From: Cellvibrio japonicus Ueda107 | GTDB lineage: Bacteria > Pseudomonadota > Gammaproteobacteria > Pseudomonadales > Cellvibrionaceae | Direction of reading: 5' to 3' | Assembly (NCBI RefSeq): GCF_000019225.1 | Contig: NC_010995.1 | Coordinates: 3,773,957-3,813,956, forward strand | Length of the DNA stretch: 40,000 bases | In this document: positions 8,987 to 19,854 of the stretch, piece after piece | Layout of the letters: each line of letters starts with the position of its first letter | Position numbering within the stretch: position 1 is the first letter of the stretch | Position numbers and translations under genes: made by a program | Notes under the pieces: generated by a model | Told to the model about the DNA's origin: nothing | The model's database searches: none | What the model saw: the letters and a program-made list of their open reading frames with translations, nothing else

Positions 8987-9042
8987 GGAACAAGTAAGCC
9001 TTTTGGTACAGACCTATCATGGCAGCGCCCGGCGGCGGCCAA

Positions 9043-9091
9043 TATACCCTGTTTATGGTATAGGCGCGTTCGTGTGATTAGGCCATATACC
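9043..9091. promoter_or_regulatory. Repeated TATACC motifs upstream of the two-component operon (candidate operator)
   Basis: ATATACC (9042..9048), inverted GGTATA (9057..9062) and a third ATATACC (9085..9091). The first two form TATACC-N8-GGTATA. Confidence 0.3.
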
Positions 9092-9146
9092 AGCCATGTC
9101 ATCTACAAGCGTCGTCATCAGCTTGCGACAACACCGGCTATCCGCA

Positions 9147-9644
9147 TTACTGGTTGGGCCTGTGGCCATAACTGAGCACCCGGGTAATCTGCCAGCCCGC
9201 ATTGAGATTGCCCCACACCATCACAAAATCCGCCACACCCTCGCACTCCCCGGTGGAAAATTGGCAAAAACGATGTGAGCCCTGGGCAATAGCACCATAA
9301 TCCTTGATGGGAAAAACCTTAAACGTCTCGGGAATCAGTTCGCGGCGAAATTTCCCACACACATATTTTTCCGTGTTGGCAATCATATCCTGCCGCGACC
9401 AGGTTACACCGCCCGTATCATGATAAAACTCCACATCCGCCGCAAAATAGCTGGCATGCTTTTTAAGTTGTTCCGGCGAACTGCAATGGTTAAACGTATC
9501 GAATACCGCCGCATCCAACGCGGCAATGGTGTCAAACAAGGTTGGCAGTTCGCTTTGTTCATTCGACTGATTATTGGGAGCGCTGAATGTATCCAGAGAG
9601 GTGATAACAAATAACACAGCAGCCAAAGGTATGAATTTTTTCAT
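9147..9644 (-). CDS. Secreted NTF2-like (SnoaL/DUF4440-like) protein, distal cassette
   Basis: Start MKKFIPLAAVLFVITSLDTFSA (signal peptide). The C-terminus FVMVWGNLNAGWQITRVLSYGH is typical of NTF2-fold proteins. The track ORF starts 24 nt upstream. Confidence 0.6.
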   Translation of the reverse strand: MKKFIPLAAVLFVITSLDTFSAPNNQSNEQSELPTLFDTIAALDAAVFDTFNHCSSPEQLKKHASYFAADVEFYHDTGGVTWSRQDMIANTEKYVCGKFRRELIPETFKVFPIKDYGAIAQGSHRFCQFSTGECEGVADFVMVWGNLNAGWQITRVLSYGHRPNQ

Positions 9645-9692
9645 GCACACATCTCCGGGCAAAAACATGGTTTTACTGCATCAAAAGGAGTA

Positions 9693-9714
9693 CCGCCAAC
9701 ATCTCAGTTGGCGG
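9693..9714 (-). other. Core-only palindrome CCGCCAAC-N6-GTTGGCGG (mini-attC remnant or terminator)
   Basis: 8-bp perfect stem with AAC/GTT cores. The stop codon of the upstream ORF lies in the loop. Confidence 0.3.
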
Positions 9715-10138
9715 ACATGGTAGTAGTTGGAAGTATTGATTTTTTTAGCTGTTTAGTACGTTTTTTATCCCTAACCCACAGCACCGTGCCATTTGTTTTT
9801 TTCAGCTCAAACAAATCAATGGCCATAAATAAGTCGCTCAATTTTTTGAAGCCATAATTTCGCTGGTCAAAAGACGCATGATTAGAAATATGGGTTCCAA
9901 TAGGCCCCAGCATAGCCCAGCCCTCTTCATCTTCCACCGCCTCAATAGCTTGCCTGAGTAAATTGATTAACTTGGTATCACTCTTAATACTTCGGCTTTG
10001 TTTCTGCACCGGCAGCTCGGTTTCCGGCTCATCATCCAAATAGAGAAAGCGGGAACAACTGTTGACAAAGGCGGTTGGTGCCTTGCGCTCACCAAAACCG
10101 ATAACAAACTTACCATCTGCCAGGGTTCTCGTTACATA
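9704..10138 (-). pseudogene. NYN-LOTUS (OST-HTH) protein remnant, N-terminally truncated or frameshifted
   Basis: The C-terminal part (WAMLGPIGTHISNHASFDQRNYGFKKLSDLF) looks like a LOTUS/OST-HTH domain. The same frame upstream reads DGKFVIGFGERKAPTAFVNSCSRFLYLDD, the end of a NYN domain. There is no in-frame ATG; the track uses an internal TTG. A strong AAGGAG-ATG lies one frame off at about 10137. Confidence 0.5.
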
Positions 10139-10173
10139 TCTCCTTGTAGTTTGACACTACATTAAAGGCTAAG

Positions 10174-10228
10174 AGATAACGAACACTCGCTCCCGTATAC
10201 CGGGGGCGAGCATTCCGTATGGCTAGGC
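10174..10228 (-). other. attC site (55 nt) of the SymE-like cassette
   Basis: On the minus strand: GCCTAGC ... CTCGCCCCCG-GTATA-CGGGAGCGAG ... GTTATCT. Confidence 0.5.
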
Positions 10229-10254
10229 ACCAGGTGGTGATTAAGTCATCAATA

Positions 10255-10440
10255 CTATAGACCAGCCTGGTCACCCGATGAAGCCGACAGGATGATTTGA
10301 CCGGGGTTGATGGTGACTTGCAGTTCTGTGCCAATTGACAAGTTGGCCTGCTCCAGCCAATAGCCTTTGAGAAGGATAAACGGCACAAACCGTGGGCGGG
10401 ACTTTTTGCGGAAGGTCGGGCTGTGGAACTGATAGTCGTA
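10255..10440 (-). pseudogene. SymE-like type I toxin remnant (no start codon)
   Basis: The unlisted frame reads YDYQFHSPTFRKKSRPRFVPFILLKGYWLEQANLSIGTELQVTINPGQIILSASSG. As I recall it, E. coli SymE has ..[35 protein letters not shown]. An in-frame TAA lies immediately upstream and there is no ATG. Confidence 0.4.
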
Positions 10441-10611
10441 TTAAGGTCTTAAGAGTGAGAGCGAGGGGGTATCGAAACAAGGAGCGATTTAGAACAGCAA
10501 TACTGTTTAACTTTGGCGGATTGAATCTTTATCCAAAATCGGTATCCACCTGATTAGGGGAAGGGCCATAAATCAACAGTTTCTTGGTGTTTTTTATGCG
10601 TGGGATTTTAC

Positions 10612-10647
10612 GCCTAATGCTGCGATAAACGGATGGTATTGTTAGGC
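10612..10647 (-). other. Truncated attC (36 nt, cores only) after the PAP2-like cassette
   Basis: GCCTAAC-N22-ATTAGGC. The TAA stop of the ORF lies inside R''. The inner arms are unpaired. Confidence 0.35.
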
Positions 10648-11223
10648 ATTTACAATGTGAACAAGGAATTGAAAAGATATACCTGCAAACAAACCTAAAC
10701 CAGCACCGATAGCTAGATCAAGCCGCGTATGCCGTTCAAGGTGAAATCTTGACCAGCCAACCAAAACAGCAAAAAAAAGAAAAAAGGTAGCCACACTTAC
10801 ATTAGGAAAAATAAGGCAGCTTGCAAGTATTGCGAAGCCAAAATGCAGTGATGGTTTTGCGATTTTGCTTAAAAAATAGCAACACAAAACGATAGCGCCG
10901 GAAAGACCAACGGCAAATACAATACCAGAATGTACGTCAAACAGAAAAAGAACCAAAGTTCCAATAAACAAAAATACACTTGCACTAATGTTAAGTTCTT
11001 TATGTTCGTTTTTTAATGATGCATCTACATGTTCCCATTGCCCGGTTCTTGTTTTAACTTGAGAATATGTGAAAACAAAAATTGCAAAGAAAATAGCGAC
11101 TATAACTGCCAGTAACTGAACCCTATGATTATCGATGGAATTTGCCGCTATTGCTGCGGCAATTGGCATTAGCAACGCAGGATGCCCCACGATTGAAATA
11201 AAACGAGCGATGCTGGTTATCAT
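10642..11223 (-). CDS. PAP2-superfamily-like integral membrane protein (cassette)
   Basis: Start MITSIARFISIVGHP at 11223, just after the attC R'. The track start at 11283 lies inside the attC. Multiple TM helices. PSLH (PSGH-like) and SRFHLERHTRLD (SRx5Hx3D) acid-phosphatase motifs. Confidence 0.65.
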   Translation of the reverse strand: MITSIARFISIVGHPALLMPIAAAIAANSIDNHRVQLLAVIVAIFFAIFVFTYSQVKTRTGQWEHVDASLKNEHKELNISASVFLFIGTLVLFLFDVHSGIVFAVGLSGAIVLCCYFLSKIAKPSLHFGFAILASCLIFPNVSVATFFLFFAVLVGWSRFHLERHTRLDLAIGAGLGLFAGISFQFLVHIVNA

Positions 11224-11228
11224 TTTAT

Positions 11229-11321
11229 GCCTAATGCCCGGCTTTGGGGCGGGCTTGTAGCCGCAGAGCGGCGGAAAGGCCATCCCAGCCCTGAAGGGGC
11301 GACAACAGCCGATTGTTATAT
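11229..11321 (-). other. attC site of the ccdAB cassette
   Basis: On the minus strand: ATATAAC-AAT-CGGCTGTTG ... CAAAGCCGGGC-ATTAGGC. The R'' arm has one extra G relative to the partner arm. Confidence 0.6.
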
Positions 11322-11324
11322 GCC

Positions 11325-11361
11325 TTGCCTCTTACGCCATATGCGCATATTGTATGCGCAT
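11325..11361 (+). promoter_or_regulatory. ccdAB promoter/operator candidate
   Basis: TTGCCT-17 nt-TATTGT. It overlaps the perfect palindrome ATATGCGCATAT (11339..11350) and a second TATGCGCAT (11353..11361). Confidence 0.45.
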
Positions 11362-11382
11362 TGTCCGCATAGAGGAACGACT

Positions 11383-11628
11383 ATGAACCACGCATACAAC
11401 TCCCAAGCCCCTAAAAAACCTACTAATGTCAGTATAAACAGCGACTTACTTGAAAAAGCCCGAGCGCTTAATATCAACCTGTCCGCGACACTGGAGCAAG
11501 CATTAGCCGAACAATTGCGAAACGAGCAGCGGGCACAATGGCTGCGCGAGAACGCCGATGCCATTAAGGCCTACAATCAATTTGTTGAATCCAATGGCAC
11601 GTTTAGTGACAGTATAAGGAAGTTCTAA
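11383..11628 (+). CDS. ccdA: CcdA-family antitoxin
   Basis: MNHAYNSQAPKKPTNVSINSDLLEKARALNINLSATLEQALAEQLRNEQRAQWLRENADAIKAYN matches the CcdA family pattern. The TAATG overlap with the next gene is typical. The track ORF has a spurious N-terminal extension across the attC. Confidence 0.85.
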   Translation: MNHAYNSQAPKKPTNVSINSDLLEKARALNINLSATLEQALAEQLRNEQRAQWLRENADAIKAYNQFVESNGTFSDSIRKF

Positions 11629-11945
11629 TGGCACAGTTTTTTGCATATAAGAACTCCAATCCCGGTACGCGAAAACAATACCCCTACTTGTTGGATATTC
11701 AAAGCGACTTGCTGAGCGAGCTGAAAACGACTGTTATCATACCGCTCTCTCCTGCCAAAATTGCGGCCCCTATGAGCCTGACAAGACTAAACCCGTCTTT
11801 CACTCTCGATGGCGAGACGTTTATCGCAATAACCCAAGACATTGCCGGGATTGATCGCAGCCAGCTTAGCGCTCAAGCTTATGATCTATCAGCATATCGC
11901 CCTGAAATTATTGCCGCAGTCGATTTTGTACTCTCTGGCATATAA
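11628..11945 (+). CDS. ccdB: CcdB-family toxin
   Basis: MAQFFAYKNSNPGTRKQYPYLLDIQSDLLSELKTTVIIPL ... is a CcdB-like sequence of 105 aa, coupled to ccdA. Confidence 0.85.
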   Translation: MAQFFAYKNSNPGTRKQYPYLLDIQSDLLSELKTTVIIPLSPAKIAAPMSLTRLNPSFTLDGETFIAITQDIAGIDRSQLSAQAYDLSAYRPEIIAAVDFVLSGI

Positions 11946-12517
11946 CGCCGCATTGCATGCGCTTTTGCTATTTTTTGCCTTATTTCAGTTGCAAGTTCTT
12001 GGGCTTCACGCATAGTTGATTGGACCAAATCCCAATTAGCCCAATGCTGTTTCCATTTTTCCTTACCTACTACAGATTCAAAATCTATCAAAGTTGGCTC
12101 ACCCCAATTTTCATAATTCTCCAACCGCCGGATACGCTTATCAATATCCTTAATCCCACGGGTTTTTGGTGATAGTTTTGCATTGCTTTGCATCCAAGCT
12201 TTCCAAGGCTTGTTACCTTTGGATTGATTACACTTTCCGCAAGAAGGCACAAGATTGTAAATTTCTGAAATATATCCTGTTGGAAGTTTATTGATTACCA
12301 ATGGACGTAAATGATCCCATTCTGATGCCGCTGCTCCACAGTATGCACACTGAAAATCGGCATATCCCATCTCTAAAATTTCTAATGCCTTTTGAACTTG
12401 ATTATCTGTAGGGACAATAATTGGAATAATTGAATTAATAAATGAATTAGTAATACTCGAAGATCGACCTGTGATCTTCATCGGTGTTGGCATTCTGAAT
12501 AGTGATAAGTAATTCAT
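11879..12517 (-). CDS. HNH endonuclease (cassette)
   Basis: CAYCG ... EWDHLRP ... NLVPSCGKCNQSKGNK is an HNH/zinc-finger signature. The last 67 nt overlap the convergent ccdB. Confidence 0.8.
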   Translation of the reverse strand: MNYLSLFRMPTPMKITGRSSSITNSFINSIIPIIVPTDNQVQKALEILEMGYADFQCAYCGAAASEWDHLRPLVINKLPTGYISEIYNLVPSCGKCNQSKGNKPWKAWMQSNAKLSPKTRGIKDIDKRIRRLENYENWGEPTLIDFESVVGKEKWKQHWANWDLVQSTMREAQELATEIRQKIAKAHAMRRYMPESTKSTAAIISGRYADRS

Positions 12518-12534
12518 GACTCTAAATTTCTAAC

Positions 12535-14306
12535 GAGCTTGTAGAAAAACGATTTTTAGAGATCGTTATCCAGCAGCTAAAATTGAAATTATTACCTGGC
12601 CAGTATTTAACCACAACCCCTTAACATAATCACCCATTATCCGCAGTCGAATGAATTCGATGTGAATAACTCTGTGGATTAACCCACATTCGCGTAATTC
12701 ATTAACTTTTCGATGTTATGTACCAAACAATATAACTGCCATTGACCTTGCACCTTGCGTTTTCCTCGTAACGAAAATCGATTCAGCTGTTTATTCGCGC
12801 AAATATTGGCGAAAACCGGCTCCACAGTCGACATGCGATGACCGTAAATAGCTTTTCCTTGTTTGCTATCAATCCGACGCTTCATCCAGTCTGTCGCATT
12901 GGCATGAATCGAAAACGTTTTAGATACCTGACGCCCATGACCTTCGCGGCTATCAGCTGACGAAGGATTACGCATGCATTCATACTTGAGGGGACAGTGA
13001 CGACAATCCGTTAGCTTACCCTCAAAATACAATTGCATTCGACCTGGCCCTTGACGGTATTCATGTTTCAGCCACATGTCCTTCCCTGCCGGACACTTAC
13101 AGCTTTTTCGTTGCAGGTCAAAAATAAATTCCGAGGCCGGAATAACGGCTTTTACTCCCTTCACATTATCTTGATGGCGCTTACCATGTTTCTCTTTTTG
13201 ATGGTCAAACATCTTGTCTCTTGAGCGAAATTGATTATCCGGAATATATGCATTGATACCTTCTTCTTTAAGGTACTCATCGTTAGCACCATTGGAAAAC
13301 CCCGTATCTGCCGTAATGATCACATTGGATTTTAGGATGTCGTCGCAGATCCCCATCTTTTGGTAACGCGTCTGTATGCTATGCAGAACAGGCTTTAATG
13401 TGTGATGTTCCTGACTTTCACCAAAAGCCTCGGCATCAACAATAACCTGATGCTTCTTATCAACGGCGGCTACGCCGTTGTAACCCTGGATGGTACCTTT
13501 ACTGGTCGTCATCTTGGCCGACTCATTGTCGGTAATATTGCTCTTCACTTCCTTTGGTTTTTTACCTTGCCCCATCCGTGGGGTTGCTGTCTTTAGGAAC
13601 TTATCTATCCGCTCGAATTCTTTTTTCAGGGTGTCGGTTGCTTTAGCGAGTTGCTGCTTGCGGTCTCGCTCGTTGGGTTTTCGGCCATCCAGTTTTTTGT
13701 GTTCTTTCAAGCAGGTGCGGATTTTGCGGCTGATCTTTTCTCGCTTTTGAGCCAGCTCATCCAAGGTTCCGGAGTGCTCCTTGGCGGCATTAGAAGATAT
13801 CTTGCAACCATCAATGGCAAAGAGTTCATGTCCCAGTAAGCCATGTTGGTCGCACACCAGTATTACTTGTGTAAAAACCGATTCAATCGCATCCGGATAG
13901 CTACTGACAAAGCTGGCAATGCTGGTGAAGTGGGGGACGGAATCGCAGGAGAGGGCTTTGAAAATAATATTGTGCTCGCATTGCCACTGAATGTCGCGGC
14001 TGGAGGTAATGCCCTTGGAGTACGCAAACAAGATAATTTTTAGCAAGATGGCCGGATCGTAAGCTGTACGCCCACCGCCATCGTTGCTGTACTTTTCGTA
14101 GAAAGCCGACAGGTCGATATGGTTGTCGATTAATTTATGAAGGGTAAATTCGAAAGTGCCTGGCTGTAATTGCTCTTCAAAATTAATAACCACCATTGCG
14201 CTTTGGCTATAGCTGTATTTTTTGAAGTTTGGCATGGCGCTACTCCTTGAAACGATACCGAATTTTATCAAAAAATCACTATTTTTAGGAGTTTTTCTAC
14301 AACTTC
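12535..14306 (-). mobile_element. IS element, IS1182-family-like, inserted in an attC core
   Basis: Terminal inverted repeats GAGCTTGTAGAAAAAC (12535..12550) and GTTTTTCTACAACTTC (14291..14306), 14/16 matching. Flanking AAC duplication at 12532..12534 and 14307..14309. One transposase ORF. Confidence 0.75.
12679..14235 (-). CDS. DDE transposase (IS1182/IS5-superfamily type)
   Basis: Start MPNFKKYSYSQS preceded by AAGGAG. N-terminal RTAYDPAILLKIILFAYSKGITSSRDI, a central coiled-coil, Cys clusters, and C-terminal STVEPVFANICANKQLNRFSLRGKRKVQGQWQLYCLVHNIEKL. Confidence 0.85.
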   Translation of the reverse strand: MPNFKKYSYSQSAMVVINFEEQLQPGTFEFTLHKLIDNHIDLSAFYEKYSNDGGGRTAYDPAILLKIILFAYSKGITSSRDIQWQCEHNIIFKALSCDSVPHFTSIASFVSSYPDAIESVFTQVILVCDQHGLLGHELFAIDGCKISSNAAKEHSGTLDELAQKREKISRKIRTCLKEHKKLDGRKPNERDRKQQLAKATDTLKKEFERIDKFLKTATPRMGQGKKPKEVKSNITDNESAKMTTSKGTIQGYNGVAAVDKKHQVIVDAEAFGESQEHHTLKPVLHSIQTRYQKMGICDDILKSNVIITADTGFSNGANDEYLKEEGINAYIPDNQFRSRDKMFDHQKEKHGKRHQDNVKGVKAVIPASEFIFDLQRKSCKCPAGKDMWLKHEYRQGPGRMQLYFEGKLTDCRHCPLKYECMRNPSSADSREGHGRQVSKTFSIHANATDWMKRRIDSKQGKAIYGHRMSTVEPVFANICANKQLNRFSLRGKRKVQGQWQLYCLVHNIEKLMNYANVG

Positions 14307-14416
14307 AACGCCGCGATAAGCGGTGGTTTTTAAGTTGCACTTTTGCCATAAAATGGAGCGAAGCGGAATGGCAAAAGAGCAACTTAAAAACCATCCGTTT
14401 GATTGCTTTGTTAGGC
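14307..14416 (-). other. attC site of the 14411..14830 cassette (R' core split by the IS)
   Basis: On the minus strand: GCCTAAC (the stop TAA lies inside) ... GGTTTTTAAGTTGC.CTTTTGCCAT / ATGGCAAAAG.GCAACTTAAAAACC long stem ... GCGGC-GTT|IS. The rest of R' (GTTAGAA) is at 12528..12534. Confidence 0.65.
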
Positions 14417-14830
14417 ATGGTGTTCGTGGCCAAACCCAATTCTATGCCAAGCTTCTTTAAAATTTGATGTGTCGTATGATGTTGGTTGAAGCCAATATGA
14501 AATAACACCATTTTTTTCGCCACGATGAGCTAAATTTTTAATTTCTTCAGGGAGCATTACAAATACATTTGGCTCTTTACCAACATTATTAATTATTAGC
14601 CAAAAATCACCCATAACTTTTTCAAGAGAGCTACCCAATGGTACGGGATTTCTTTTTGTAAGTGATTTTACTTGAACCCCAATAAACTCAGTTCCTGATT
14701 TGTTATAAGCAATAATGTCTATGCCTCTAGCGTTTCTCGCAGTTGGCATAACGTTCCAACCCATACAGGAAAGCTTATAGCACGCGTAATACATTCCGAT
14801 ATTTCCAGTCACCTGAGTTTCCAGCTTCAT
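14411..14830 (-). CDS. PD-(D/E)xK nuclease-fold protein (Hjc/DUF4365-like), single-gene cassette
   Basis: GNIGMYYACYKLSCMGWNV ... RGIDIIAY ... FIGVQVKS matches the E...D...(Q/E)xK layout of archaeal-Hjc-type nucleases. The ATG lies 8 nt after R' GTTAGGC. Confidence 0.6.
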   Translation of the reverse strand: MKLETQVTGNIGMYYACYKLSCMGWNVMPTARNARGIDIIAYNKSGTEFIGVQVKSLTKRNPVPLGSSLEKVMGDFWLIINNVGKEPNVFVMLPEEIKNLAHRGEKNGVISYWLQPTSYDTSNFKEAWHRIGFGHEHHA

Positions 14831-14837
14831 TACTATT

Positions 14838-14922
14838 GCCTAACGCCGTGCTCAACGGCAGTTTGTAAGTTGTGGTTTTGTGGGTTACTTTTGCGCAGCA
14901 AAACCACAAAGCCGCGAGTCGA
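14838..14922 (-). other. 3' portion of the intron-interrupted attC (cassette 4)
   Basis: Ends in GCACGGC-GTTAGGC (R' at 14838..14844). Contains CTTACAAACTG (14859..14869), complementary to 16781..16791. An inner hairpin TTGTGGTTTTG...CAAAACCACAA is present. The upper limit depends on the unresolved intron 3' end. Confidence 0.4.
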
Positions 14923-14958
14923 GTAGACCAACGGAACCTCCCCCATCAGCCCCTCACA

Positions 14959-14992
14959 GAACCGTACGTGACACTCTCGCGTCATACGGCTC
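14959..14992 (-). ncRNA. Group II intron domain V
   Basis: GAGCCGTATGACGCGAGAGTGTCACGTACGGTTC is a 34-nt hairpin with the catalytic AGC triad and the bulge position typical of DV. Confidence 0.85.
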
Positions 14993-15018
14993 TTGTTATT
15001 CCAACTATCAACAATGTA

Positions 15019-16263
15019 TCACCAGTGCGCAAACAGGGTCGGCCGCCACTGTTTGATTTGCGTTAACCATGAGTAGGCGTTCAGTCGTCGGCTGCGCTTC
15101 TGCGGATATTTACCTTTTACCCATTTTGTTAATCGGCATTCAATCGCTTCTCGAATGCCTTGCAGTGCCGATGGATAAAAAGCGCCGTAGTAGGTAAACC
15201 ACCCTCTGATTTGTGGATTGAGCTTTTTGCTGAGTGTGACTATCGATAGCCTACTCAATCGTCTCACATTCCACTCTCTCATCGTCTTCACAATCGCTTT
15301 CTTGGCTTTGTTGCTGATGGCCGGTACAAAACCCGGAACCAATTTGCCATCTTTGCGTTTCACGGTTCTTCGCCGGAAGGTGAAGCCCAGAAAGTCAAAC
15401 GATTGCGCTTTGGTCCTTTCTATTTTGCGTCGGCCACAGTATACAATTTTGGTTTTCTCAGGGTGCAGTGTTAAATCAAAGCGCTGCATCCTTCGTGAAA
15501 TAGCACTGAGCAGTTGCTCCGCTTCATGCTCTGTTCGACAATGACAAACAATATCGTCGGCATAGCGCTCGAACGGATTTTGTGGAAAATATTTTTGCAT
15601 CCAGCTATCAAACACTTTGTGCAAATAAAGATTCGCCAACAGCGGGCTAATAACTCCCCCCTGTGGCGTTCCTTTTGCAGTCTTGTGCAGCTCACCGCCC
15701 GGCATTTGCACACCGGCCGTGATCCAGCGCTTGATGTACAGCTTGCACCATGGGTCATCCGTTGCTTGTGCAACAAATTTTTGTAATTGATCGTGATTCA
15801 AATTGTCGAAGAAACCTTTGATATCCAGATCAATGACCCATGAATATTTCCAGCAGTTTATTTTCGCCGCTTGCACCGCGTGATGGGCACTCCGCCTGGG
15901 GCGATAGCCAAACGAGGATGCGTGGAATTTGCTATCCCATTCCGGCTCCAGTGTCATCTTGACCACCATTTGCGCCACTCGATCTGCCACCGTGGGTATA
16001 CCCAGTGGACGCAGCTTGCCATCCGCTTTGGCCATTTCAACTCGCTTTACCGGTGGTGCCATGTAGCTGCCTGAACTCATCCGGTTCCAGAGTTTATACA
16101 ACTCATTTTCCAAATTGTGTTCAAACATGTCGATACAGACATTGTCAGCACCCGCAACACCCGCGTTTGCTTTTACTTTCAACCAAGCCGCATACACCAA
16201 CTGCTTCGATATACTGTAACTGTGCACTGATTGTTGAATCCTGCCTTGCGGTTGTTGGTTCAA
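15019..16263 (-). CDS. Group II intron reverse transcriptase/maturase (no endonuclease domain)
   Basis: RT blocks: RPLGIPTVADRVAQ, DLDIKGFFDNLNH, GTPQGGVISPLLANLYL, ERYADDIVCHC (YADD). Maturase X region FLGFTF ... IRGWFTYYG. The protein ends LFAHW. The start codon is uncertain (TTG at 16263). Confidence 0.9.
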   Translation of the reverse strand: MNQQPQGRIQQSVHSYSISKQLVYAAWLKVKANAGVAGADNVCIDMFEHNLENELYKLWNRMSSGSYMAPPVKRVEMAKADGKLRPLGIPTVADRVAQMVVKMTLEPEWDSKFHASSFGYRPRRSAHHAVQAAKINCWKYSWVIDLDIKGFFDNLNHDQLQKFVAQATDDPWCKLYIKRWITAGVQMPGGELHKTAKGTPQGGVISPLLANLYLHKVFDSWMQKYFPQNPFERYADDIVCHCRTEHEAEQLLSAISRRMQRFDLTLHPEKTKIVYCGRRKIERTKAQSFDFLGFTFRRRTVKRKDGKLVPGFVPAISNKAKKAIVKTMREWNVRRLSRLSIVTLSKKLNPQIRGWFTYYGAFYPSALQGIREAIECRLTKWVKGKYPQKRSRRLNAYSWLTQIKQWRPTLFAHW

Positions 16264-16780
16264 TCACTGCTGAATAACATCGCCCCTTCGCTCCATTGTC
16301 ATTACAACAACTTCAACACTACTACGAACGATTCCGCCACTGTGCGCCGCATCGATACTCTCACCTTACGGGGTCACCGCTTTCGGCTTCTCTCTTAACA
16401 TCAGCACGACAGCTTCCCGAGTTCCTCACAAAAGCCTGATAAACGGTCACGCCTTCTTTACGCCGGTTGCCATCGGATCAGTAAGCAGTTTTCTTTCCGG
16501 TTTCTCTCAGCAATTGTAAGGGTCGCTGATTTTGACAACAGTTAGGGACATCACGACGCCTCATCAAAGGTTCACTTGCGTTCGTCTCCGTTTATCGTAC
16601 CTGCCGAATTTTATTCCGACTTTTCTTCAACGCTCACGACAATGACTCTTTATCAATGCCGCTTGAAGTGGTTTGCACTCACTTACTGCAAAGCGAATGC
16701 GGTGGGCCTGCCACCATCTCTTGCGAAGTTACGTAAACAGTTTGGACGCTACGCGACCCCACCATTTACTCTCGGCACAC

Positions 16781-16832
16781 CTTACAAACTGTCCAGCACG
16801 CAAAGCGTGCGAACTAGAACGCCTTGTTAATG
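16781..16832 (-). other. 5' portion of the intron-interrupted attC (cassette 4)
   Basis: R'' CATTAAC (16826..16832) lies 6 nt after the cassette stop. Then the hairpin GCACGC-TTT-GCGTGC (16796..16810), then CAGTTTGTAAG abutting the intron. Confidence 0.45.
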
Positions 16833-16838
16833 ATTTGG

Positions 16839-17261
16839 CTATAACCACATTTGCACAATAATTGTAATGGCAACCCCACAAGAACCCATACCAAACAGAA
16901 CTAGCTGCCACCAAAACAGACACCACGATAATTTTCCTAGAGCCTTGGTTTCTTGCCGGTCACTAGAACTGACTGGTTCATCTTTATAGCGTGAACGTGC
17001 AATCTGCGTGGTAGCACGAAAATCTCGCAGGCGGTTGATGGCGCACCAAACAGATAGACCAATGGAAATTGCGAGCAAGACCATTGAGCATGTTGCGATA
17101 ATAAGCAAGCAACTGCTAACGGGCTGAACAACAACAAAACCAGAGACTAAAAATGCCAGAAGACCTGTAGATAGCCCAAGAACAAGATTGGATACAGACG
17201 AAAAATAATCTCTCGTAATACCTTGCCACCGAACGAAGCTCTCTTTATCTTCTGCTGCCAC
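16839..17261 (-). CDS. Small integral membrane protein, unknown function (cassette)
   Basis: GTG start preceded by AGGAG. Three or four hydrophobic helices. I recognise no motif. Confidence 0.55.
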   Translation of the reverse strand: MAAEDKESFVRWQGITRDYFSSVSNLVLGLSTGLLAFLVSGFVVVQPVSSCLLIIATCSMVLLAISIGLSVWCAINRLRDFRATTQIARSRYKDEPVSSSDRQETKALGKLSWCLFWWQLVLFGMGSCGVAITIIVQMWL

Positions 17262-17276
17262 TTACTTTCTCCTGCT

Positions 17277-17360
17277 CATTAACGCCCGCAGCAAGCGCGG
17301 CTTTGTAGTGAATGCGAAGCCGCAACGGAAGAGTCGTCGCCTTGACTGCGATTGTTATGT
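17277..17360 (-). other. attC site
   Basis: On the minus strand: ACATAAC-AAT-CGCAGTCAAGGCG ... CGCTTGCTGCGGGC-GTTAATG. There is an extra T in the R'' arm. The stop TAA of the ORF lies inside R''. Confidence 0.7.
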
Positions 17361-17669
17361 TTTTGGTGCCCAGCCATTACGCTCAGCCAAGACTTGCCAC
17401 TCAGGTTTTTTTGTAGGGATTATACTTTCACAATATTTAATAAGGCTTTCTAGATGAAGATCCTTGCCATTGTATAAATTCCCTGGCGTGGACTTTCCCT
17501 TAACTTTTGGATTGGCATGAGAACCTTGCAGCCTCGTTATTACATTGCCTAAAAGCTGCTTCAGTTGAACATCTTCAGTTTTGTTCATGATTTTACCAAG
17601 ACTTGTAATGTGAGAGGCTACGGTCTTCATTTCCTTCAGTGCATTTATTGTTTCTTCATAAATAGTCAT
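17355..17669 (-). CDS. Hypothetical protein (cassette), 104 aa
   Basis: Start MTIYEETINALKEMK preceded by AAGGAG. The track start at 17702 lies inside the attC. No recognisable motif. Confidence 0.55.
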   Translation of the reverse strand: MTIYEETINALKEMKTVASHITSLGKIMNKTEDVQLKQLLGNVITRLQGSHANPKVKGKSTPGNLYNGKDLHLESLIKYCESIIPTKKPEWQVLAERNGWAPKT

Positions 17670-17693
17670 AACTTTTCTCCTTGCCTTGGCAAA

Positions 17694-17808
17694 ACATAAC
17701 ACTTAGGTAAGTCGTGGTTGGTATGTTGTGTTTTTTGGAGCAAAATGAGCGATAGCGAATTCCAAAAAATGCAACATACCAACCATCGGCTTGACCGTTT
17801 TGTTATGT
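17694..17808 (-). other. attC site
   Basis: ACATAAC ... GGTCAAG.CCGATGGTTGGTATGTTGC / ..CAACATACCAACCACGACTTACC ... GTTATGT. This is a long imperfect palindrome with two extra bases in the R'' arm. Confidence 0.7.
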
Positions 17809-17814
17809 AATTAT

Positions 17815-18294
17815 TTAAGCTTTTGGTATCTCTTGCAGATTATTTAAAAGCTCAATACCCGATATTACTTTAAAGCCCTCAGCGTTACAGATATTTTCAC
17901 ACCAACTTTTTTGGCTTGCAATTTCACCATCTCGAGTAGCTTGGTTGTTCCAGTTCCGATCATAAGCCTGTGTGTAGAGAACCATGAATAGCTGTACTTC
18001 AGCACCATAGAATTTTTTTAACAATTCTAAATGTTTTGGATGACGCTCCCGCTCACATTTAACATTACAGCCTTCTATTTCAAATGCCGCGATAACTTTC
18101 CAATACCTTGAGTTAGGAAGGTTTTGCTCATTCGAATTCGAACTTTGCCTTAGAGCCCAAACCAAGTCGATATGTTTAGGTCGTTCTTCTAAATTCGGAG
18201 GACAATCAGAATGCAATGCAAACTCAGGAATTACACAATATCCTTTCTCTCGACCGGCTTCGATTAGAGAAGAGTAAATATCATTTTTTGTCAT
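17815..18294 (-). CDS. Hypothetical protein, possible restriction-endonuclease-like fold (cassette)
   Basis: 159-aa clean ORF. The HIDLVW ... AAFEIEG arrangement resembles a D...ExE/K nuclease core. This is weak, by-eye evidence only. Confidence 0.55.
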   Translation of the reverse strand: MTKNDIYSSLIEAGREKGYCVIPEFALHSDCPPNLEERPKHIDLVWALRQSSNSNEQNLPNSRYWKVIAAFEIEGCNVKCERERHPKHLELLKKFYGAEVQLFMVLYTQAYDRNWNNQATRDGEIASQKSWCENICNAEGFKVISGIELLNNLQEIPKA

Positions 18295-18316
18295 TTATTT
18301 TTTATATCCCATATCA

Positions 18317-18392
18317 ACATAACGTTTGGTTAAGGGGCGGGCTTTAGCCCGTCCCAGTGAGCGAAGCGAACGATTTGAACCAATTGTTATAC
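18317..18392 (-). other. attC site
   Basis: GTATAAC-AAT-TGGTTCAAATCG ... CCCCTTAACCAAAC-GTTATGT. There is an extra C in the R'' arm. The central stem is GGGACGGGC/GCCCGCCCC. Confidence 0.7.
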
Positions 18393-18398
18393 AGCAGG

Positions 18399-18593
18399 CT
18401 ATACGCTAAATGGCATAGCTGTGTCGTACTCCTCTAAGGTGGCCTCCAGAAATTCGTCACGATGAATTTTTGCTTTTTCTGACCATACACATAAAACTTT
18501 ATTAGGCGTACTTCCGGAGTACCCCTCTACGGTCATAAGCTCACCGCCAGACTTTAGAATCACCACATCACCTACGTTGAATTTATTGCTCAT
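18399..18593 (-). CDS. DUF2158 (YodC-like) small protein, first cassette
   Basis: MSNKFNVGDVVILKSGGELMTVEGY is the typical DUF2158 N-terminus. AAGGAG RBS. The track start at 18626 is upstream. Confidence 0.7.
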   Translation of the reverse strand: MSNKFNVGDVVILKSGGELMTVEGYSGSTPNKVLCVWSEKAKIHRDEFLEATLEEYDTAMPFSV

Positions 18594-18642
18594 AACGACT
18601 CCTTTTTGTTGTTTGACGAAATTCAAAATTTTTATTCATGAC

Positions 18643-18806
18643 GTATAACATTGTTATTAGACGGAAAGTTTCCGTATAACATCCCGGAAAATTTCCACCT
18701 AAGTTTTTTGATCAAGCTTTATACCACACCGTCAAACTACCCGCCATTACAGGCTTATAGCACTTTATTATCAATTAACAAGCGAGATAAAAGGTGGAAA
18801 GCTTCC
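18643..18806. other. attI region
   Basis: The crossover core GTTATAC (minus strand, 18643..18649) complements the R'' of cassette 1. A second ATGTTATAC box is at 18674..18682. Three GGAAAnnTTCC palindromes are at 18663..18673, 18686..18696 and 18796..18806. Confidence 0.5.
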
Positions 18807-18834
18807 TTGCTAATTCACCTATTATGGATACAAT
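18807..18834 (+). promoter_or_regulatory. Candidate intI promoter
   Basis: TTGCTA-16 nt-TACAAT. Confidence 0.45.
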
Positions 18835-18836
18835 AA

Positions 18837-18852
18837 CTGTTTGCATATACAG
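18837..18852 (+). promoter_or_regulatory. LexA (SOS) box
   Basis: CTGTTTGCATATACAG is a perfect CTGT-N8-ACAG. It starts 3 nt downstream of the candidate -10 and lies 31 nt upstream of the intI ATG. Confidence 0.7.
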
Positions 18853-18882
18853 CTCACTTATTTAAAGGAGCAAGGAGGCATA

Positions 18883-19854
18883 ATGTACAAATCCCCTTTT
18901 TTATCAAGCATTTACGATGAAATGATGCGCCGTCGCTACGCCAAGCGAACCATCGAAACCTATTTGCATTGGATCAAGCGTTACATTGTGTTCCATAACA
19001 AGCAGCATCCGTCCTTGATGGGCGACAGAGAAGTTGAAGCCTATCTTGATCATCTGGTTTTACAGCACAATGTCGCGGGACCAACACAAGCACTGGTATT
19101 AAATGCACTCAGCTTTCTTTATAGGGAGATATTGCACAAACCCTTATCCCTGGAACTAAGGTTTGTCAAAAGTCAAAAAACCCGCAAGCTCCCCGTAGTA
19201 CTCACCCGTGACGAAATAACTGCGTTGATGGCTAACATAAGCAGCAACCATTACTTACCGGCAGCATTGATGTATGGCAGCGGCCTTAGACTCATGGAGG
19301 CCGTACGATTGCGAACAAAAGACATAGATTTTGATTACTGCTGTGTGCGGGTCTGGAATGGGAAAGGAGGAAAGCATCGTACAGTCACCCTGGCCCCAGA
19401 GTTAAAAAAGCCTTTAACAGTACAAATACAACGGGTGGAATATCTCCTATCCAAGGATTTGCTAAATCCAACCTATGACGGTGTTTGGCTACCACATGCA
19501 CTCCGGCATAAATATGTTTCTGCCAATACATCACTGGGTTGGCAATATTTATTTCCATCGGATCGTTTGAGTATCGATCCTGAAAATCAACGGGTCAGAC
19601 GACACCATATTGATGAAAGCGGATTACAAAAAGCCATCAGAAATGCCTCGCAAAAAGCCAATATCCGCAAACATGTTAGCGCACATACACTGCGTCATTC
19701 TTTTGCCACTCACTTACTAGCATCCGGGGCTGATATTCGTACCGTGCAGGATCAGCTTGGACATACAGACGTTAAGACGACTCAAATTTATACCCACGTT
19801 TTGCAAATGGGCGGCAATGCCGTAAAAAGCCCCTTCTCAACGCTGGGTATTTAG
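18883..19854 (+). CDS. intI: Integron integrase IntI
   Basis: Start MYKSPFL preceded by AAGGAGCAAGGAGG. Tyrosine recombinase boxes RLMEAVRLR, HTLRHSFATHLL and GHTDVKTTQIYTHV. It also has the IntI-type extra segment ALRHKYVSANTSLGWQYLFPSDRLSIDPENQRVRRHHIDESGLQKA. Confidence 0.93.
   Translation: MYKSPFLSSIYDEMMRRRYAKRTIETYLHWIKRYIVFHNKQHPSLMGDREVEAYLDHLVLQHNVAGPTQALVLNALSFLYREILHKPLSLELRFVKSQKTRKLPVVLTRDEITALMANISSNHYLPAALMYGSGLRLMEAVRLRTKDIDFDYCCVRVWNGKGGKHRTVTLAPELKKPLTVQIQRVEYLLSKDLLNPTYDGVWLPHALRHKYVSANTSLGWQYLFPSDRLSIDPENQRVRRHHIDESGLQKAIRNASQKANIRKHVSAHTLRHSFATHLLASGADIRTVQDQLGHTDVKTTQIYTHVLQMGGNAVKSPFSTLGI

Follow-up and report, generated by a model that had tools for sequence, protein, structure and literature searches.

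Integron cassettes are being mined for compact anti-phage genes, and most of them still lack an assigned function. Many such unassigned cassettes, at least one third of those tested, give phage resistance, and the systems that they encode are small (10.1101/2024.07.02.601719; 10.1101/2024.07.02.601686). Here I describe a cassette from the chromosomal integron of Cellvibrio japonicus Ueda107, in a 40,000-nucleotide stretch of its genome (contig NC_010995.1, positions 3,773,957 to 3,813,956) that I call the window and whose coordinates are used below. The cassette contains one intact open reading frame (ORF) of 139 amino acids (aa) at 14411-14830 on the minus strand, and its product, judging from a predicted structure, has the PD-(D/E)xK nuclease fold and is a member of a large and unnamed family of stand-alone restriction-endonuclease-fold proteins of about 135-145 aa. 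Like the anti-phage cassettes of Darracq et al. (2024) and Kieffer et al. (2025), it is small, has a single gene with a nuclease-fold product and lies in a chromosomal integron, but it matches none of their described systems that were checked. No described system of Darracq et al. corresponds to a lone 139-aa nuclease, and the sequence list of Kieffer et al. contains none of the family's conserved peptide or DNA words that were looked for, a weak check on machine-read sequences. One entry in that list, Brc142, a "putative dimeric restriction endonuclease", was considered as a member and rejected, the listed cassette being about 1.6 kb. None of the five new systems in a 2026 cassette-library preprint matches the family.

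Among nucleases of known structure, the best full-length match to the AlphaFold2 model of the protein is I-Ssp6803I (PDB 2OST; Foldseek TM-scores 0.62/0.58, E 1.6e-4), likewise a stand-alone minimal PD-(D/E)xK enzyme, of about 150 aa. I-Ssp6803I belongs to the Pfam family PDDEXK_5 (PF11645) and is encoded by an intron in cyanobacteria, whereas the present family is strongly conserved and was found neither in introns, in the loci examined, nor in phage records; the two have no sequence-level match. I-Ssp6803I recognises a 23-bp site as a tetramer (PMC3384342). Hjc (PF01870; PDB 2WCW, 2WCZ, 1GEF), several structures of which match the model with TM-scores up to 0.6 relative to the target, resembles the family in core fold, in size and in having D...(E/Q)xK on strands 2 and 3, but Hjc is a vertically inherited archaeal core gene with a glutamate in helix 1, in contrast to a nomadic accessory gene without that glutamate. 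The best Foldseek E-value (1e-4) goes to DREN of SPARDA (PDB 9QCC, 9VX6, 9JT2), a defence effector nuclease, although DREN is one domain of a protein of about 400 aa, requires an Argonaute partner and forms filaments, and its TM-score against the query is about 0.5. NhoI and the N-terminal domain of Eco15I (PDB 8Q5N, 8RPX, 8Q5O) are PD-(D/E)xK units, about 150 aa in size, for which methylated DNA is the substrate and no methylase partner is needed, and their likeness to the family (TM-score about 0.5) is at the level of fold alone. Finally, Mrr-type domains, which also work without a cognate methylase, provide the sole Pfam sequence signal of the family, on the D...QxK core. This signal is below cut-off, with Mrr_cat (PF04471) and Mrr_cat_2 (PF13156) scoring 12.9 and 13.2 bits against 21 and 22, and the family further differs from Mrr-type enzymes in having no DNA-recognition or other extra domain. 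Among integron defence cassettes, Epona and Divona are examples that contain Mrr-type domains (10.1101/2024.07.02.601686).

The ORF runs uninterrupted from an ATG start to a TAA stop. Its stop codon (14413-14411) lies inside its own R'', GCCTAAC (14416-14410), as the first-pass annotation of this DNA had noted. The attC of the cassette (14307-14416, minus strand) extends from this R'' to the R' core GTT (14309-14307) and folds into a long imperfect hairpin of -32 kcal/mol (z = -6.85); none of 200 shuffles was as stable. At the other end of the cassette, the junction R' GTTAGGC (14844-14838, minus strand) is the exact reverse complement of GCCTAAC, with the crossover between 14844 and 14843 and the cassette starting after the G. 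The first annotation placed the ORF start 8 nt after the crossover; the ATG is in fact 13 nt past the G/TT crossover, which is 7 nt past the R' heptamer. In an integron array the TTNNNN that starts a unit is expected to complement the NNNNAA of its own terminal R'', and this rule is satisfied by five consecutive units up to the integrase gene (18680-18392, 18323-17808, 17700-17360, 17283-16832 and 14844-14416). Thus, the 139-aa ORF is the fifth cassette of the array. The integrase gene, intI (18841-19854, plus strand), is divergent from the cassette row and encodes Pfam domains Phage_integrase and Phage_int_SAM_4, that is, a tyrosine recombinase with a SAM-like N-domain. The ORF lies in an island of low guanine plus cytosine content (about 9000-19800, at about 37-50% compared with about 65% in the flanks).

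The AlphaFold2 model, built with 32 homologues, has a pLDDT of 91.8 and a pTM of 0.86. It begins with a helix (residues 5-22) followed by strands 26-29, 39-42 and 49-56, an alpha-beta-beta-beta core, and then by more strands and short helices; the alpha-beta-beta-beta-alpha-beta core of the PD-(D/E)xK superfamily is present. The motif order first read from the letters, a helix, then GIDIIAY (36-42), then GVQVKS (51-56), holds in both the ORF translation and the model. D38 stands just before strand 2 and Q53-V-K55 lies within strand 3, which are the canonical positions, in the glutamine variant of the motif. The top Foldseek matches in the PDB are all PD-(D/E)xK nucleases, many with a probability of 1.0 (EcoRV comes lower in the list), and predicted viral structures annotated as PD-(D/E)xK endonucleases match the model as well. 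The structural comparison thus supports the fold that the first-pass annotation had proposed, and its label "Hjc-like" is apt at the level of fold (TM-score 0.5-0.6) but not of sequence: no Hjc, PDDEXK_5 or Mrr model reached threshold. Hjc gave no Pfam match at E <= 1, nor any among 41 diverse family members, PDDEXK_5 gave none in a Pfam scan of the 139-aa protein, and no PDB chain was matched by sequence even with a family profile. The weak sequence signals that do exist, to Mrr_cat, Mrr_cat_2, the YraN-type PRK14681 and the PADLOC model PDC-S02 (a partial match, 15 bits over 42 residues), all fall on the D...QxK core. One element of the earlier motif has to be given up, namely the acidic residue of helix 1, because E4 is variable across the family, with N10 and Q6 conserved in its place. 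A helix-1 acidic residue is not universal in the PD-(D/E)xK superfamily, and the D...QxK configuration is typical of Mrr-type enzymes. Nuclease activity is likely given the conservation of the motif, with the caveat that only one acidic residue is left.

The family is large. A word-indexed search of representatives of 90%-identity clusters returned 2,085 homologues, the best 120 of which are 69-96% identical to the window protein, come from Vibrio, Marinobacter, Limnobacter, Nitrospira, Deltaproteobacteria and many metagenomes, and are nearly all unnamed proteins. An exhaustive profile search (E <= 1e-3) gave 1,281 clusters at 50% identity, mostly of 130-150 aa; of the longer relatives, one has a known domain (DUF7669, of unknown function) and the others have no Pfam domain. 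Across the 41 members, which reach down to 33% identity, N10, G12, L20, S21, W25, N26, G36, D38, K55, P87 and W128 are near-invariant. D38 and K55 are conserved in at least 90% of sequences, and position 53 is Q, sometimes E, and nothing else. Nonsynonymous divergence (dN) from the window gene is 0.09-0.18 while synonymous divergence (dS) is saturated, and dN/dS is below 0.1 where computable, which indicates that the lineages separated long ago and that purifying selection has been strong. The family has no match in the copies of Pfam, NCBIfam, PADLOC and PDB that were searched, and the only Pfam matches of the diverse members are the weak Mrr signals, which reach an E-value of about 1e-3 in 3-4 of the 41. 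Since so large and conserved a family is missing from these databases, one well-chosen experiment would annotate thousands of genes.

Copies elsewhere demonstrate that the gene is a mobile unit by itself. In Vibrio, one identical protein occurs in four different neighbourhoods, each copy framed by a VCR-type attC with the stop codon inside R'', while a Marinobacter copy has a different, shorter attC; the R'/R'' rule is also satisfied in the Vibrio and Marinobacter copies. The variety of neighbours and of attC types around identical or near-identical genes bears out the first-pass view of a single-gene cassette. Neighbourhoods were compared in 80 loci from named genomes, which span Gamma- and Betaproteobacteria, Nitrospirales, Planctomycetes, Chloroflexaceae, Thermodesulfobacteria, Acidobacteria, Brocadia and a Methanotrichaceae archaeon. 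Strict R'/R'' complementarity was found in six of them, compared with 0.5 expected. Inspection by eye also showed attC-type sites at both ends of solo copies that adjoin polA, dsbC and an IS21/methylase region (L103, L104, L106). Furthermore, on a metagenome contig (L096, 3013-3935), a copy 88% identical in protein stands alone between era and secA, where only the downstream attC-like hairpin is kept, with AAC/GTT changed to AAT/ATT on both arms, and the insert of about 760 nt has a direct repeat of about 25 nt at its borders. Two looser detectors were tried on the 80 loci and discarded: an attC-hairpin detector did not separate homologues (13/80) from neighbouring ORFs (68/392), and neither did a count of TAAC at the stop codon (17/80 compared with 71/553, p = 0.056). 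As both failed to discriminate, the cassette fraction among family loci can be given only roughly, as at least 6 of 80 by the exact test and more by eye.

Cassettes are not the only vehicle. The gene is found in genomic islands and on 20 plasmids, for example Pseudomonas pHS87a, Rhizobium plasmids, and the Sulfolobus conjugative plasmid pARN4 and its relatives, and a metagenome-assembled genome (MAG) of a methanogen of the Methanotrichaceae (L043) encodes a homologue 67% identical to the bacterial cassette protein. By contrast with this wide spread, not a single family member was found in 50,697 phage records. I was also unable to identify any intron or intein context in the loci examined, the group II intron of the window being a separate, attC-targeting element.

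What surrounds the gene varies. No neighbour family recurs across the 80 loci beyond local synteny, and there is no conserved partner or antitoxin gene, in agreement with the earlier description of a nuclease-fold protein with neither methylase nor antitoxin partner. A few neighbourhoods nonetheless point to genomic conflict, and individual loci lie in regions that resemble defence islands. In Paraburkholderia and Pandoraea (L064/L107, L070) the gene overlaps the end of an ADP-ribosylglycohydrolase (ARG) gene by 23 nt; in a Chloroflexaceae MAG (L035/L109) where a prophage-like block borders it, it shares an ATGA overlap with a NADAR gene; and in Ramlibacter (L061/L111) it lies between an Xre-type regulator and a gene with the Pfam domain REase-ARP, adjoining an HD dGTPase-like gene. 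On a Rhizobium plasmid it is near Shedu, AbiGi and zeta-toxin genes. Iyer et al. 2022 (PMC9503650, section 3.8) predicted conflict systems centred on ARG, with variable restriction endonuclease (REase) effectors, and the ARG and NADAR overlaps and the REase-ARP neighbour in Ramlibacter recall them. The coupling, however, occurs in just three lineages of the 80 loci, and the window copy has no such neighbour. The family may thus be one of the variable REase effectors of these systems, a lead from 3 of 80 loci rather than a rule.

What function could tie together copies in such diverse hosts? I tentatively favour, at somewhat less than an even chance, a conflict nuclease that acts without a partner and spares its host through substrate selectivity. 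The protein would be a metal-dependent DNA endonuclease with D38, at the start of strand 2, and Q53-x-K55, in strand 3, as its active site, and probably a homo-oligomer, as are other minimal nucleases of this fold. Its gene would move alone, as a cassette, on plasmids and in islands, and the enzyme would act without a dedicated partner. Because very diverse hosts tolerate the gene, such a nuclease would have to be selective, likely by way of a feature absent from resident DNA, either a base that is modified or ADP-ribosylated or an intermediate that is branched or arises in replication. Its role would then be that of an effector nuclease in inter-genome conflict, restricting phage or other mobile DNA. 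Absence from the phage records places the family on the host side of such conflicts rather than the phage side, and I count it in favour, together with the conflict contexts and with the share of tested unassigned cassettes that give phage resistance. A partner-less restriction nuclease of this kind would offer both a defence module and a tool, very small and portable. A bolder version, which I regard as unlikely, is that the whole family, found in both bacteria and archaea and carried about by integrons and plasmids, consists of immune nucleases of about 140 residues that are sufficient by themselves and restrict invading DNA by reading a chemical mark that the host lacks. The mark could be ADP-ribosylated or otherwise hypermodified DNA, given the repeated overlap with ARG and NADAR genes. 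If this were true, these proteins would be among the smallest stand-alone nuclease defences and would represent a new kind of modification-dependent restriction.

Several observations count against a partner-less conflict nuclease. PADLOC v2, which the first-pass annotation had suggested as a check for defence genes, matched no model to the protein and gave only sporadic weak matches among the 41 members. The immediate neighbours in the 80 loci are mostly housekeeping or unrelated genes (GNATs, methyltransferases, housekeeping enzymes), and the minority of the 149 immediate neighbours that do match PADLOC (methyltransferases, PD-T4-3, dGTPase, PDC candidates) comes from an uncontrolled count. 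The very strong conservation of the family is unlike the fast evolution typical of many immune effectors. Activity itself could be weak, unusual or lost, because D38 is the sole conserved canonical acid, the helix-1 glutamate is absent and the acid of (D/E)xK is usually glutamine; moreover, that the active-site residues cluster is deduced from secondary-structure positions only. Finally, the window copy has a leader of 7 nt with no obvious ribosome-binding site, has no promoter of its own, and lies about 3.9 kb from attI with the intron and the preceding cassettes between. A short leader of this kind, the missing promoter, the distance and the intron all mean that this copy may be poorly expressed in the array.

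The alternative that fares best, although I consider it unlikely, is a structure-specific nuclease, a junction or flap resolvase like Hjc or RecU, whose work would benefit the mobile DNA around its gene, for instance by resolving plasmid or cassette recombination or replication intermediates, and which would have no part in defence. The presence of Hjc among the best structural matches suits this idea, as do the copies on conjugative plasmids. One of these, the Sulfolobus islandicus pARN4 homologue (L014, 14831-15256), retains all motif residues at 46% identity and lies near conjugation genes; the literature on Sulfolobus conjugative plasmids gives no function for it. Conservation across phyla would fit a structural DNA substrate, and wide host tolerance a substrate that is rare in healthy cells. 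However, the protein has neither a Pfam match to Hjc nor the conserved helix-1 glutamate of Hjc, many copies reside in chromosomal arrays far from plasmid functions, and the coupling to ARG and NADAR genes would be left unexplained.

Quite unlikely, in my view, is a toxin-like nuclease, acting in addiction or abortive infection, which low expression or an unlinked factor would restrain and whose effect would be to stabilise the array or to kill infected cells. It would explain why the copy on pHS87a directly follows, and overlaps, a relB-yafQ toxin-antitoxin pair, and it agrees with the presence of toxin-antitoxin cassettes in arrays, including ccdAB in this one, and with the collateral nuclease activity of the top structural match, SPARDA DREN. 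Yet the 80 loci contain no conserved antitoxin-like neighbour; several Nitrospirales genomes keep the gene in stable, conserved synteny, and a constitutively toxic nuclease would not spread alone.

The scarcity of acids in the motif raises a further alternative, that of a catalytically dead protein that binds DNA with a nuclease fold, as a regulator or an anti-restriction decoy. D38 is what remains of the usual two or three acids, and glutamine replaces the second acid in most members. Against this, D38 and K55 scarcely vary across the roughly 1,281 clusters, and the restriction of position 53 to Q or E suggests that this residue works as a ligand of metal or water. Mrr-type enzymes with the QxK variant are active, and I consider a dead protein improbable. 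Were the family to consist of resolvases or decoys, the result would correct the habit of equating every lone nuclease-fold cassette with immunity. Last, a selfish endonuclease of the homing type, free-standing and spreading its own gene by cutting empty sites, is very improbable: although I-Ssp6803I, the best full-length structural match, is a homing endonuclease and solo copies adjoin the core genes era-secA, polA and dsbC, integrase-mediated insertion explains these copies, given the attC-type sites at both ends of the inspected ones (L103, L104, L106) and the mutated attC-like hairpin downstream of the copy between era and secA (L096), while the family is absent from phage records, where homing endonucleases abound, lies in neither introns nor inteins in the loci examined, and shows a purifying selection and cross-phylum conservation unlike those of homing endonucleases.

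Both attC sites that bound the nuclease-fold cassette have been invaded by mobile elements. The first-pass annotation had recognised this, and its assignment of a group II intron to the upstream site and an insertion sequence (IS) to the downstream one stands with refined coordinates (about 14918-16780 for the intron and 12535-14306 for the IS). The IS is an IS1182-like element on the minus strand, delimited by its terminal repeats and junctions, and its transposase gene (12679-14271, minus strand) encodes a 530-aa DDE protein with Pfam domains DDE_Tnp_1_6 and DUF772. It is inserted exactly at the R' GTT of the cassette's own attC, with the duplicate GTT at 12534-12532. Another copy in this genome (G000:C1:1654110-1655912) has identical junctions, and all eight full-length relatives, which are 66-70% identical and come from six other genomes of the order (L116-L121, L124, L126), share them: the attC stem, GCGTT / GAGnC-TGTAGAAAAAC ... 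GTTTTTCTACA-GnCTC / GTTAnnnn, where slashes mark the element ends. Thus, insertion is exactly at the R' GTT crossover triplet, with duplication of GTT, and this IS1182-like element appears to target integron attC sites. The attC-targeting ISs known to me are those of the IS1111 group, and a literature search found no paper on an IS1182-type element that targets attC.

The group II intron (about 14918-16780, minus strand; Rfam RF01999 and RF00029) contains a reverse transcriptase-maturase ORF (15019-16263; Pfam RVT_1 and GIIM) in which no endonuclease domain was detected. Its ends were placed by comparison with an intact paralogous attC elsewhere in the same genome (G000:C1, about 1.654 Mb), to which the 3' half of the interrupted attC (14845-14917, minus strand) aligns; the 5' half (16781-16832, minus strand) begins with the R'' CATTAAC (16832-16826). 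The intron sits in the middle of the stem of this upstream attC, about 16 nt past a small GCACGC/GCGTGC hairpin. As it lies on the strand of the cassette genes, it could be spliced from the array transcript.

Other cassettes of the array add some observations. Upstream of the intron, the cassette gene at 16839-17261 (minus strand) encodes a 140-aa protein with a weak PADLOC match to a two-transmembrane effector (E 0.011). The cassette that follows the IS (11879-12517, minus strand) encodes a lone 212-aa HNH protein matched by the PADLOC models for Septu PtuB and the candidate PDC-M01B HNH protein at E-values of about 1e-6, with no ATPase partner within that cassette. The ccdA-ccdB toxin-antitoxin pair (11227-11945, plus strand) is in a cassette inverted with respect to the rest of the array. 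Finally, close relatives of the attC sites of this array also occur near 1.653-1.656 Mb and 0.959 Mb of the same genome, so that at least one additional cassette array or cluster of attC sites exists at a distance from intI.

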